From a virus (Duplodnaviria; Caudoviricetes): DNA of 32,633 bases. Positions 17,476 through 32,487 of the stretch are shown here, in pieces (position 1 is the stretch's first letter; every line of letters starts with the position of its first letter). The notes beneath the pieces were generated by a model, which searched no databases, was not told where the DNA came from, and was given only the letters and a program-made list of their open reading frames with translations. Location: positions 1-32,633 of the IMG/VR virus record IMGVR_UViG_3300016665_000118; one strand, given 5' to 3'. Position numbers and translations under genes: made by a program.

Positions 17476-17535
17476 TAACGGGTAACTTGAAAAGGACAGG
17501 GGCTAACGCTCCTGTCCACCTTGGGAGATAAGAAC

Positions 17536-18104: not shown

Positions 18105-18498
18105 GAGCGTTGCCTATGGCATCGCAAAACGAAAGTTATTGCTGGAACGCTGGGATGAGCTGGTAGCAATGGGGATGCCACAAGCGCAGGCATCCAAAGA
18201 GATTGGTTACAACTACTCCACGGTAAAGGTTTGGCTTGCTAACCGACAGGTTGAGCAGTTGAAAGAAGAAGATGCCAAGCGACTAACAATGGCTGGTGGT
18301 TCCTTCTCGGCTGCCCTTGAACGCCTGAGAGCGGGACAGGCGGTAAGGCGGCACGGAGCTTCTTGGTTCCTTGAGTTGGTTGATGGCAAGATATGCCTGT
18401 ATCTGATTGATGGTGCAGGTAATCGCAGGTACAGCCGGGTGGCATCATTCGGATCCGCTGATGTACTTGCTACCGACTGGGAGATATACCAACCATGA
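18088..18498 (+). CDS. HTH domain fused to a DUF2829/Tad2-like domain
   Basis: GMPQAQASKEIGYNYSTVKVWL, then SFSAALERLRAGQAVRR...DVLATDWEI. Confidence 0.65.
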   Translation: MPRPSESVAYGIAKRKLLLERWDELVAMGMPQAQASKEIGYNYSTVKVWLANRQVEQLKEEDAKRLTMAGGSFSAALERLRAGQAVRRHGASWFLELVDGKICLYLIDGAGNRRYSRVASFGSADVLATDWEIYQP

Positions 18499-18769
18499 CA
18501 GGATTAGAAGCATTCATAGCTTGCACAGAAGGTCAACGAGTTAGAAGAACTAAATGGCAAACCGGTATTTATTGCGTGGCTGCTGCATCTTCAAACTATC
18601 ACCGCATCAGGATTGCACTTGACAAAATTAGTTTTTCATTCATCTTGACTCATGATCATGAAGACTTCGATTCCTGCTTTGATAAAGAGACAGGCAGGCC
18701 TACACAACTTTGCCAAGTAAATGCAGGAGACTTTATGTATAACGACTGGGAGATATACCAACCATGACA
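18474..18769 (+). repeat. 27-bp exact direct repeat flanking one gene
   Basis: CGACTGGGAGATATACCAACCATGACA at 18474-18500 and 18743-18769. Confidence 0.95.
18495..18767 (+). CDS. DUF2829/Tad2-like protein
   Basis: MTGLEA....EGQRVRRTKW...DFMYNDWEI. Confidence 0.6.
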   Translation: MTGLEAFIACTEGQRVRRTKWQTGIYCVAAASSNYHRIRIALDKISFSFILTHDHEDFDSCFDKETGRPTQLCQVNAGDFMYNDWEIYQP

Positions 18770-22440: not shown

Positions 22441-22456
22441 ATTTCAGAACGACAAC

Positions 22457-22484
22457 GAGCCCCCTTTCGGGGGCTTTTTTGTTT
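22457..22484 (+). terminator. Intrinsic terminator
   Basis: AGCCCCC-TTTC-GGGGGCT-TTTTTGTTT. Confidence 0.88.
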
Positions 22485-22485
22485 C

Positions 22486-22496
22486 TGTGGGATACT
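22486..22496 (+). promoter_or_regulatory. Late promoter motif TGTGGGATACT (portal, leaderless)
   Basis: Exact 11-mer, 6 nt before ATG 22503. Confidence 0.7.
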
Positions 22497-22502
22497 AGGC
22501 AC

Positions 22503-24233
22503 ATGGGTATCTTTGACCGCTTCCTTGGTAATAAAGCCGTAGCAAACCCGACACAGGCACTACCGCTGCCATTGTCCCAGTCCCGTGACATCTACCTAAC
22601 CGGGTATGGCTCTGGTCAGCTGCAAACACTCTTGCGCCGTGCGCTTCCTGGCTCATCCAAAGACTGGGCACGAGTAGCAGGTGACCTAGGGCTAAATGGC
22701 ATCGTTGCATCTGCCATCGACTGGTACATCAGGAACTTTCCACAAGCCACGCCGAAGTACTACCGACCCGTAGATAGCCAGCAAGCCGAGCCTGTTGAAG
22801 ACCATCCGGTAATCGCTCTCATGGCACAACCTGATCCGATGGTTATGGGTAGCCTGTTCTGGGGCTGGGTTATTCAAGACTACAAGCTTTTCGGCAATAC
22901 TTACCTCCGCAAGATTCGATCTACAACCCGTGGTGTGGTTACTGCTTTGCAGTTCCTTCCGCAGGACATGGTGCGACCTGTCGGTAACGGTATCAACCCT
23001 TTGACGCATTATGTGTACACCACGGATGGTCGCTCTTTTGACATCCCTGTATCAGACATCATCCATATCCGGTACGGCAGAGACCCAAGCGATATCAGGC
23101 TTGGACGAAGCCCGGTAACGGCTGTACTGCGTGAGATTGCAACCGACAACACTGCATCCAGTACGGCCTATGGTTTGCTTGCAAACGGTGCTATGCCTAG
23201 CCTTATCGTAGGGCCTGATGCCAAAGACCAGACCGTAGACATCAGCATGGACGATGCACGGCAGGTCAAGCGACAACTGCATGAAGACCTAACCGGGGAT
23301 GGTTCTGGAGGCATCGTGGTTATGACCGGAGCCTACAAGATGGACAGGGTATCCTTGACCCCGTCTGAGCTTGCCTTGGATTCTGTCCGGCGTGTACCTG
23401 AGGAGCGTATCTGCTCTGCCCTTGGTATCAACCCAATGGTCTTGGGGCTTGGTGCTGGTCTTGAGCGTAGCACCTACAGCAACTACGAGCGAGCCCAGCA
23501 AGCAGCGTGGGAGGATGGCATGGTGCCGCTTCTGCGTGTTCTTGCTGATGCCGTTACCGCTGACCTCCTGCCAGAGTACCCAGAGACCCAAGAAGGTGAC
23601 TTTGTACAGTATGACCTTGAGCAGGTCAGGGCGTTGGCTGATGACCTAGCAGCAGAGGCAGACCGTGCCGAGAAACTGTACAAGGCGGGCATCATTGACC
23701 GTGCGGAAGCAAAGCGCATCGCAGGTCTTGAAGCCGTGCCAGAGGATGAAGGGCAGCTACACCCGCAAGCAATCCCGGTACAGACCACAGATGCTCCTGT
23801 CCCTGCGATCCGCTCATTCGAGATGAAGTACAGGCCGAATGCATCCATGAAGGAAGCGGCACAACGTGCGCTCGACTGGAAGGCTGAAGGCTTTGATGGT
23901 GGGACACGGGTAGGGCTTGCAAGGGCAAACCAGATTGTCAATGGTGAGCAACTTTCCGAAGACACCATCCTGCGGATGTACTCCTTCTTTTCACGGCATG
24001 AAGTCGATAAGCAGGCGGAAGGCTTCAACGCTGGTGAAGATGGCTTTCCATCTGCCGGGCGTGTAGCTTGGGACTTATGGGGCGGTGATGCTGGCTTCCG
24101 CTGGGCAACCGCAAAGCGCAACCAGATCATGGGTGATGAAGGCAAGAGCCTTGATTGTTGCACTCCGGGGGTAGTGTACAAGAGCCACCCTTTTTACGGG
24201 TACGAGCTGATGGAGGCTCATACAAGCGAGTAG
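22503..24233 (+). CDS. HK97-type portal protein with an extra C-terminal domain
   Basis: LFGNTY, DIIHIR..GRSP, NGAMPS, ICSALGINP..LG, TYSNYE motifs; after terL. Confidence 0.9.
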   Translation: MGIFDRFLGNKAVANPTQALPLPLSQSRDIYLTGYGSGQLQTLLRRALPGSSKDWARVAGDLGLNGIVASAIDWYIRNFPQATPKYYRPVDSQQAEPVEDHPVIALMAQPDPMVMGSLFWGWVIQDYKLFGNTYLRKIRSTTRGVVTALQFLPQDMVRPVGNGINPLTHYVYTTDGRSFDIPVSDIIHIRYGRDPSDIRLGRSPVTAVLREIATDNTASSTAYGLLANGAMPSLIVGPDAKDQTVDISMDDARQVKRQLHEDLTGDGSGGIVVMTGAYKMDRVSLTPSELALDSVRRVPEERICSALGINPMVLGLGAGLERSTYSNYERAQQAAWEDGMVPLLRVLADAVTADLLPEYPETQEGDFVQYDLEQVRALADDLAAEADRAEKLYKAGIIDRAEAKRIAGLEAVPEDEGQLHPQAIPVQTTDAPVPAIRSFEMKYRPNASMKEAAQRALDWKAEGFDGGTRVGLARANQIVNGEQLSEDTILRMYSFFSRHEVDKQAEGFNAGEDGFPSAGRVAWDLWGGDAGFRWATAKRNQIMGDEGKSLDCCTPGVVYKSHPFYGYELMEAHTSE

Positions 24234-25273
24234 ACGATGGTACAGGCAGAATCTATGCCGCCAGCCAGAAGTTCCGCAACGATTTACTGGAGCGTGAAGG
24301 CGTAGCCATATCCCGGATGCAACGAGCGTACAAAGCCGCTACCGCTGCATCTATCGCAGAACTTGAAGCACTAGAGGAACGCATCGCAGAGCGTGAGGCA
24401 AACGGGGAAGACCCATCAGACACTATCCTTTGGATGCGTCAGCGCATCATCGACAATATAGAAGAGTTAGGCAGGAACCTACAAGCGTTTGCAATCGAGG
24501 GGGCAACCATTACAGCAGATGGACAACTCGAATCAGCCATCCTTGCGAATGAGGCAAGCGTCGGCTTGGTTGAAACGGCGGCTGGTCGTAAACCGTCTAA
24601 CGTCTCCCTCGGCACAAGCTGGACAGCCTTGCCAGACGAACAGCTCCAAGCCTTTGTCGGTTTTTCGGGTGATGGAAGCCCTCTGGGTGTCCTATTTGAA
24701 ACCATACCGCAGGTGACTACGGATGCCATGCAGATGGCACTTGTACAAGGCATCAGCCTAGGTGAAGGGCCACGGACAGTAGCAAGGCGGGTAAGACGTG
24801 CAGCTGATATCGGTAGGCAACGAGCGGAGACAATAGCGCGTACCGAGATGATCCGAAGTGCCCGTGAAGCACAACGGCAACTGTATACGCAAAACCCGGC
24901 GGTGCAAGGATACAGACGGCAAGCGACCCAAGATAGCCGGGTATGTCTGGCGTGTTTGGCTTTGTCTGGCACACTGCAAGCAACAGATGAAATCATGCCA
25001 AGCCATCCTAACTGTAGATGCGTCATGGTTCCGGTAACGATGTCATGGGCAGAGATTACCGGGGATAGTAGCATCCCGGATACCAGACCAGTGGTAGCAA
25101 CACCTGAGCGCATCCTCGCTGGTTTATCTGAGTCTGACAAACTGGCCATCATGGGGCCTGCAAGATACCAGATGTACAAAGACGGCAAACCGCTTGCTGA
25201 TTTCGTGCAGGTAGTACCTAATCAGGATTGGGGGCCTAACACGCGTGTACGGCCTCTACGTGAGCTTATATAG
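24188..25273 (+). CDS. MuF / SPP1 gp7-like head morphogenesis protein (start uncertain; possibly entered by -1 frameshift from the portal)
   Basis: RAETIARTE, DSRVCLAC..L.G, HPNCRC; no convincing RBS plus start; slippery C CCT TTT at 24188-24194. Confidence 0.85.
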   Translation, partial: PFLRVRADGGSYKRVDDGTGRIYAASQKFRNDLLEREGVAISRMQRAYKAATAASIAELEALEERIAEREANGEDPSDTILWMRQRIIDNIEELGRNLQAFAIEGATITADGQLESAILANEASVGLVETAAGRKPSNVSLGTSWTALPDEQLQAFVGFSGDGSPLGVLFETIPQVTTDAMQMALVQGISLGEGPRTVARRVRRAADIGRQRAETIARTEMIRSAREAQRQLYTQNPAVQGYRRQATQDSRVCLACLALSGTLQATDEIMPSHPNCRCVMVPVTMSWAEITGDSSIPDTRPVVATPERILAGLSESDKLAIMGPARYQMYKDGKPLADFVQVVPNQDWGPNTRVRPLRELI

Positions 25274-25277
25274 GGTG

Positions 25278-25288
25278 TGTGGGATACT
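25278..25288 (+). promoter_or_regulatory. Late promoter motif TGTGGGATACT (protease/capsid, leaderless)
   Basis: Exact 11-mer, 6 nt before ATG 25295. Confidence 0.7.
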
Positions 25289-27615: not shown

Positions 27616-27626
27616 TGTGGGATACT
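27616..27626 (+). promoter_or_regulatory. Late promoter motif TGTGGGATACT (neck operon, leaderless)
   Basis: Exact 11-mer, 6 nt before ATG 27633. Confidence 0.7.
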
Positions 27627-32008: not shown

Positions 32009-32487
32009 TGGCATACGAACCAGCCGTCATAGAGCAATGGATTTACGAGACCCTAAGCGGTGATGCTACGCTTTCTGGTCTGCTTGCCGTTGATAACAAA
32101 CCTGATGGTTATCAGATGGGCATCTATAACACCGTTGCTCCTCAACTCGACCCGATCAGCAGGAAGCCTGTACAAGTGCCTTACGTGGTGTTCAGTCGTG
32201 ATGGTTCAGGCAGTGATGATGAAGACACGCTATGCGGTGGCAGGGCTTTCACGTACCCAAACTATAGAATCACGGTGTGGGATACTGAAAGTGGTGCGAT
32301 AAGCATGAGCAGGATACAAACTATCATGTCTCGCATAGACACACTTTTGGATAATCAAACGGTAACCAGTACAACTCCAAGGCTATATGTACGACGGGTT
32401 TCAACGGATCAAACCTTTGCTTTATCTGATGGTGGTCGGACGGATTACGGGGTGACAGCGGTCTATCGCTGCCTCACACAGCAGTAG
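32008..32487 (+). CDS. Tail terminator protein
   Basis: IYETLSGDATL, PYVVFS, ITVW; precedes the major tail protein. Confidence 0.75.
   Translation: MAYEPAVIEQWIYETLSGDATLSGLLAVDNKPDGYQMGIYNTVAPQLDPISRKPVQVPYVVFSRDGSGSDDEDTLCGGRAFTYPNYRITVWDTESGAISMSRIQTIMSRIDTLLDNQTVTSTTPRLYVRRVSTDQTFALSDGGRTDYGVTAVYRCLTQQ
32276..32286 (+). promoter_or_regulatory. Late promoter motif TGTGGGATACT (intragenic, about 210 nt before the major tail gene)
   Basis: Fourth exact copy, on the same strand. Confidence 0.5.

Follow-up and report, generated by a model that had tools for sequence, protein, structure and literature searches.

A programmed −1 ribosomal frameshift at the sequence C CCT TTT very probably joins a MuF domain to some of the portal subunits made by this phage. 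The stretch of DNA analyzed (the window) is an entire virus record of 32.6 kb (32,633 nucleotides), and the public runs that match it best are freshwater and estuary metagenomes. Its head module is arranged in the order terminase, portal (22503–24233), MuF (in the −1 frame, extending to 25273), prohead protease, and HK97-type capsid. The features discussed below are as follows.

22486..22496, + strand: promoter-like TGTGGGATACT, likely the start of a leaderless transcript, 6 nt 5′ of the portal ATG
22503..24233, + strand: HK97-type portal gene, 0-frame product of 576 aa and 63 kDa (PF04860 at residues 68–406, E 1e-52)
23832..24113, + strand: extra domain of ∼95 aa at the portal C-terminus (residues 444–537), function unassigned (phrog_2859, E 1e-32)
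24160..24177, + strand: upstream hairpin with a stem of 5 bp (GCACT / AGTGT) and a loop of 8 nt; its 3′ end is 11 nt from the slip site
24167..24172, + strand: Shine–Dalgarno (SD)-like GGGGGT, contained in the hairpin loop; a second phage group has GGAGGT or GAGGT there
24179..24181, + strand: −1-frame codon three before the slip site, CAA in the window and a stop codon in 55/166 junctions, which bounds the shift window on its 5′ side
24188..24194, + strand: putative slippery heptamer C CCT TTT (Pro–Phe tandem slip)
24194..25273, + strand: MuF (SPP1 gp7-like) frame entered after the slip, 359 aa (PF04233, E 4e-15)
24200..24223, + strand: downstream stem-loop, a weak candidate stimulator (−9.2 kcal/mol, z −1.3)
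24317..24319, + strand: first in-frame MuF ATG, the start chosen by most gene callers; located mid-helix, with neither an SD sequence nor a promoter element

The TGTGGGATACT element lies 5–6 nt before the ATG of the portal, protease, and head-completion genes in both the window (22486–22496, 25278–25288, and 27616–27626) and its relatives, and is likely a late promoter that gives leaderless mRNAs. Another copy, the fourth, is located near 32277 and is not followed by an ATG at 5–6 nt. Just before the portal promoter element, at 22456–22482, a terminator-like hairpin followed by a T run can be seen by eye. Elsewhere in the window, a repeated element, TGGGAGATA(TACCAACC), is found at 18478–18494 and 18747–18763, immediately 5′ of the ATGs at 18495 and 18764, and a related copy is present at 17522. 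The phrog_2859 domain sits between the portal core and the slip site. Its Atlas matches are hypothetical viral clusters only, and stand-alone viral proteins of 100–120 aa resemble it.

Conservation of the probable slip site

A preliminary description of this locus had proposed a correctly phased X XXY YYZ heptamer near the end of the portal gene, with MuF as the −1 frame, and both observations hold. The portal frame reads CAC CCT TTT TAC at 24186–24197, with CCT located 14 codons before the portal stop (TAG, 24231–24233). The −1 frame is open from 24155 to 25273, and its PF04233 match exceeds the curated cut-off, as expected for a MuF / SPP1 gp7 family gene lying directly 3′ of the portal gene. 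The motif by itself is not rare, since another phased heptamer occurs in the same portal gene at 22997. It is the conservation of the heptamer, not its mere presence, that exceeds chance.

Relatives of the window were collected in two scans, which gave 152 loci with some contigs included twice. When the genes were located by tblastn, independent of the motif, MuF was found in the −1 frame in all 147 sequences carrying both genes (window included), and the same slippery site was present in each. Three loci that lack the motif end at or before the slip site. The sequence CACCCTTTTTACGG is identical in all 117 distinct 230-nt junctions; mean nucleotide identity among close relatives is 77–79%. 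A second phage group, whose MuF is ∼50% identical to that of the first, retains the site as C CCT TTT or C CCT TTC. Thus the conservation that the preliminary description had asked for is observed for the heptamer (166/166 junctions, TTT or TTC) as well as for the overlap phase. Codon counts among these 166 distinct junctions, which represent two phage groups only and are not independent of each other, are CAC 166, CCT 166, TTT 160 with TTC 6, and TAC 166. The pattern that retrieved them allowed synonymous changes but demanded the peptide HPFY, so relatives with an altered HPFY are seen in the tblastn-based comparisons only.

The conservation of the site surpasses what the protein would need, as judged from the scarcity of synonymous changes. 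In comparisons of 100 and 112 sequences, a single codon was kept at amino-acid-invariant columns for 7 of the 12 portal codons that lead up to the slip, against 11/388 in the bulk of portal, 9/210 in the bulk of MuF, and 1/38 for bulk Pro codons. The −1 frame is also open from the site into a conserved protein. Both properties are expected of a −1 frameshift signal. Part of the nucleotide conservation is explained by constraint on the protein, which acts on both frames around the site (0 frame, HP[FY]YG; −1 frame, P[FY]LRV). This dual constraint leaves entry into the −1 frame unexplained. Motifs of the form H_HH.U_UU.Y, to which both C CCT TTT and C CCT TTC belong, are among the most efficient −1 motifs in Escherichia coli (Sharma et al. 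2014; PMC4066793), although the rules for E. coli may not be those of the host.

In the proposed mechanism, a fraction of the ribosomes on the portal mRNA would slip back one base at C CCU UUU (24188–24194). Both tRNAs would slip in tandem, with tRNA-Pro moving from CCU to CCC and tRNA-Phe from UUU or UUC to UUU, and the slipped ribosomes would continue into MuF. The predicted transframe product (...VYKSHPF-LRVRAD...), made beside the 576-aa portal, is 923 aa and 101 kDa by computation, close to the ∼920-aa portal–MuF protein originally suggested. This reading withstood every comparative test run.

Origin of the MuF N-terminus

The earlier impression that MuF lacks a convincing start of its own is borne out. 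The anti-SD pairing of its first in-frame ATG (24317) is −2.6, tied with that of TTG 24155 as the weakest among 31 window positions scored. The TGTGGGATACT promoter element is missing near the MuF start in 171/171 junctions. In a structure model of MuF (mean pLDDT 88.8), the first helix spans residues 2–55, from 24239 on, and ATG 24317 corresponds to residue 28, inside this helix. A Foldseek search with the model returned no similar solved structure at E up to 0.001. The helix is present in fused and stand-alone homologues as well. Moreover, MuF codons 14–41, all of which are 5′ of ATG 24317, include 20 invariant residues and none with a fixed codon, a pattern that points to protein-level selection well upstream of this ATG.

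The boundary at which this selection begins is sharp. In the −1 frame, codons −2 and −1 before the slip site vary freely among the 166 junctions, and from the site onward the frame encodes L (166/166), R (166/166), and then V, I, L, or M (164/166). The heptamer is the exact point at which selection passes from one frame (0) to the other (−1). Given the −1-frame stop three codons 5′ of the site in a third of the junctions, TTG 24155 is ruled out as a start. No ATG, GTG, or TTG codon is found between the upstream stop and codon +30 in 74 of the 166 junctions.

These observations bear on the possibility that MuF is made separately from ATG 24317 (or TTG 24155) and that the overlap with portal is incidental. 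ATG 24317 is favored by gene callers and is invariant in 112/112 close relatives, but the same invariance is expected from protein conservation because Met has one codon. In the second group the corresponding position is often not ATG. A protein begun at 24317 would have only half of the first helix, a structure that stand-alone homologues retain and on which purifying selection acts. As far as the sequences allow a test, a start at ATG 24317 is not upheld, and separate initiation is very unlikely.

Re-initiation or coupling at a nonstandard codon near the portal stop, for instance the Ile codon at 24251 (a weak start at most) or the Val codon at +4, four codons past the slip site, is about equally improbable. 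Such codons are available, as one or more of seven possible start codons precede codon +22 in every one of the 166 junctions, and some stand-alone homologues (P0071) begin with a Met that aligns to the Ile of the peptide IYAA. The +4 codon is GTG or ATG in 15/166 junctions, all from the second group; however, it is GTA in 136/166. The Ile 24251 position varies as ATC, ATA, ATT, CTC, and GTT, as would be expected of an amino acid. Re-initiation would also not account for the invariance of the heptamer, for its loss from own-start relatives, or for the conservation of LRV in the −1 frame.

The relatives that do not carry the slippery site serve as natural controls. Where MuF has its own ATG, the site is missing in 12/12 distinct junctions. 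In four of these loci (three distinct junctions) the portal stop overlaps the MuF start as TAATG, and MuF begins MYYGK(P/T)YLRVK, with non-slippery codons. This N-terminus matches the transframe PFLRV, and therefore the predicted fusion would retain the whole MuF N-terminus. A quick tree of 52 MuF rows places the TAATG group with both frameshifting groups (support 99) and nearer to the second (93), which suggests, as a lead only, that the TAATG group lost the frameshift. The own-start MuF sequence of its four loci (L154–L157), M-YYG-K-PYLRV, resembles both reading frames of the slip site (FYG in the 0 frame and PFLRV in the −1 frame), as would be seen if loss of the frameshift had involved a duplication of this site. 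In another locus (L297), the portal tail HPYYGYEL is kept with CCG, and MuF starts at an ATG of its own. The TAATG group and L297 thereby also show that the protein is constrained in both frames.

More distant relatives were also sorted by the arrangement of the two genes. Among 74 distant loci, 16 belong to the close group, 38 have no portal match with the queries used and are unclassified, 10 are in-frame fusions, and 10 have separate genes. In 9 of the 10 separate-gene junctions, MuF has its own ATG and a phased heptamer is missing. Single-chain portal–MuF proteins of 807–920 aa with both Pfam domains make up 9 of 91 longer homologues, and phrog_2662 is a single-ORF family of this kind. The tenth separate-gene locus, from an Armatimonadales bin (L299), has a −1 overlap with A AAA AAG and no ATG nearby. 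This locus and another distant one (L392), in which the upstream gene is only a putative portal, have MuF in the −1 frame and a run of nine A residues where the two genes meet, a different slippery site for the pair.

The searches differed in reach. An alignment scan of viral contigs recovered close relatives only. Of 117 loci from a metagenome pattern scan, 7 were portal/MuF loci, and these all belonged to the second group. When genomes were first scanned with the MuF protein, none of the 67 candidate stretches proved to be a relative; in a second scan, 61/67 loci had no upstream portal match and hence were unclassified. The nearest MuF relatives in cellular genomes are only 37–38% identical. 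The top six include three from Armatimonadota bins, and the best is on a contig binned with an archaeon. No close MuF was found in cultured phages (50 records, of which the 25 listed are 25–38% identical and none covers 80%). In many relatives (P0002–P0069), MuF carries a further C-terminal part of ∼300 aa or an intein (PF14890), and the C-terminal extension ends in a phrog_33618 match in the six scanned. The window MuF is the short form.

Slippage by RNA polymerase could yield the same fusion from the same overlap, with one base added at the T5 run so that a fraction of mRNAs encode portal and MuF in frame. Programmed transcriptional slippage uses a run of about 8–9 or more A or T residues. 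The run here is 5 T, or 3 T where the site reads C CCT TTC (6 of the 166 junctions), so this route is unlikely, and we judge it slightly less probable than either of the initiation models. Furthermore, what is conserved is the X XXY YYZ pattern, in phase with the codons. Contigs of two RNA-labelled runs showed no insertion there; these contigs have small shares, drop rare variants, and are blind to expression and to rare slippage. Finally, an assembly error, or a pseudogene in which a fused gene was broken by an indel in the T run, can be dismissed despite the occurrence of in-frame fusions in the family: The phase is shared by 147/147 loci from many samples, both genes are intact and under selection, and the homopolymer indel that the preliminary description had warned of is not seen in two gap-free contigs from two studies, one of which possibly derives from the window's own sample.

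RNA elements flanking the probable slip site

The preliminary description noted GGGGGT about 15 nt upstream of the heptamer, and this sequence is indeed located 15 nt before it, at 24167–24172. A hairpin absent from that description encloses it, with GGGGGT in the loop. Its stem is paired in 215/215 cells representing 43 distinct sequences, compared with 10–64% for slid controls, and three of the five pairs change on both sides. Two of these double changes separate the two phage groups and one also varies inside the first group, so independent covariation events are few.

The predicted anti-SD pairing of the loop (−9.2 to −12.5) equals or exceeds that of the gene starts scored in the window (best −9.3), and an SD-like sequence occupies one fixed place in 163/163 relatives, a count made without a chance control. 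For SD-like stimulators, spacings of 9–14 nt (PMC5009743) and 6–17 nt (PMC4066793) are given, such that the 15 nt found here is outside the first range and at the limit of the second. The SD-like loop likely stimulates the slip: The sequence would pair with 16S rRNA once the ribosome opens its hairpin, and together with the weak 3′ stem it may stimulate or tune frameshifting. In some minimum-energy folds, GGGGGT pairs with CACCC across the slip site, and the bases involved are nearly invariant. Refolding of a 5′ hairpin is a known form of attenuation, and it is possible that the hairpin attenuates in this way instead.

Downstream of the heptamer, the proposed stem GTACGAGC-N8-GCTCATAC is present 5 nt after the site with one mismatch, but is not more stable than shuffled sequences. 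Folded alone, the window junction shows nothing beyond shuffles (z −1.3 to 0). A stimulatory structure would be expected to begin 4–10 nt past a bacterial slip site. Among relatives the stem has a mean z of −2.1 over 76 variants, and it is more stable than the local background in 117/163 and not in the other 46. Most close relatives form a stem of 6–7 bp beginning 6–9 nt after the site, with hairpins overall located 5–9 nt downstream, and one pair changes on both sides (C-G in 21 and A-U in 11 of 41). The downstream stem is a weak, variable element, and the window version is among the weaker ones. An Rfam search of 23900–24500 gave no matches at E up to 1.

Relation to known systems and implications

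No described frameshift at this gene pair was known to the preliminary description, and our literature search likewise found none for portal–MuF; supplementary cluster tables (PMC3711429, PMC4066793, PMC10885494) or subscription journals may hold one. Neither PMC10885494 nor PMC3711429 uses the word "portal" in its main text, and the first two-thirds or so of PMC5009743 is likewise free of it. PMC10885494 has one mention of MuF-like genes, which stand there among predicted sites scored as false positives and are related to toxin fusions.

A close parallel in organization is the −1 frameshift of the tail assembly chaperone genes G/GT, found in lambda and in most long-tailed phages (PMC5009743), with SPP1 17.5/17.5* as a further example (PMC6316719). 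In both systems a phased X XXY YYZ heptamer lies late in a morphogenesis gene and the second ORF has no start of its own. G/GT gives a short and a long product in a set ratio, and a short and a long product are predicted here. In contrast to G/GT, the present pair belongs to the head module, comprises portal and MuF, would yield a virion component rather than a chaperone, and has a different heptamer and an upstream hairpin with an SD-like loop. The pair sits between terminase and prohead protease and not before the tape measure, and is not a G/GT tail chaperone pair. The junction would work like G/GT without being a member of that class. The arrangement of upstream SD-like sequence, heptamer, and downstream stem-loop is shared with the dnaX and IS911/IS3-family signals (PMC5009743, PMC4066793). 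It differs from dnaX and IS911 in that the SD-like sequence is farther away (15 nt) and inside a covarying hairpin, the heptamer is C CCU UUY rather than A AAA AAG, and the 3′ stem is weak.

Other phages provide precedents for the predicted product. Microbacterium phages of subclusters EA3, EA5, and EA8 and of cluster EB encode single-ORF portal–MuF fusions (PMC7302621), which, like phrog_2662, have the same two domains in the same order in one chain. These single-ORF proteins place MuF on every portal subunit, whereas fusion in the window phage requires a change of frame. Frameshift extensions of capsid or major-tail proteins occur in T3, T7, A2, and Listeria phages (PMC5009743). As predicted here, a minority of subunits in a virion oligomer carries a C-terminal extension, but those extensions are mostly outward-facing Ig-like domains on the capsid or tail, as opposed to MuF on the portal. 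Binding to portal and DNA and presence in few copies per virion are traits of the MuF / SPP1 gp7 family (PMC6316719, PMC4493119). In SPP1, portal-bound gp7 aids infection, and one to three copies of it per capsid are reported (PMC6316719, PMC5576092, PMC4493119). In both SPP1 and the window phage, the MuF gene is directly 3′ of the portal gene and MuF is tied to the portal. However, SPP1 gp7 is a separate portal-binding protein, and the consulted text of these three papers describes no frameshift for it.

If fusion subunits co-assemble into the portal ring, MuF would be delivered inside the head, with a copy number set by the rate of slipping and not by binding as for SPP1 gp7. In a ring of 12 subunits, a slip rate near 10–20% would give one to three copies of MuF, and the fusion could then be a minority product that sets stoichiometry. 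A low fusion ratio is not required across the family because in-frame fused relatives exist. From the fully fused relatives it follows either that different ratios are workable or that the fusion is cleaved at a later stage.

A broader reading, which we consider possible if somewhat doubtful, is that portal–MuF represents a second widespread recoding pair of tailed phages beside G/GT, and that in the present group the caged SD-like loop, a 5′ element without a published description, tunes the slip and may form a switch. The family might then alternate between separate coupled genes, a −1 frameshift, and in-frame fusion. Equally tentative is the idea that the hairpin switch responds to MuF itself and so sets the number of MuF copies per ring.

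The usual view is that the portal ring is uniform and that MuF is a minor protein made separately. If the frameshift is real, it would make the ring mixed and offer a direct route for loading MuF into the head in a set number. The number of MuF copies needed per virion would be testable through single-letter changes. MuF genes in this abundant freshwater group would be annotated about 40 residues short, and the real portal–MuF product would be missing from protein databases. Where MuF carries the C-terminal part of ∼300 aa or the intein, the slip would govern the dose of this cargo entering the head.
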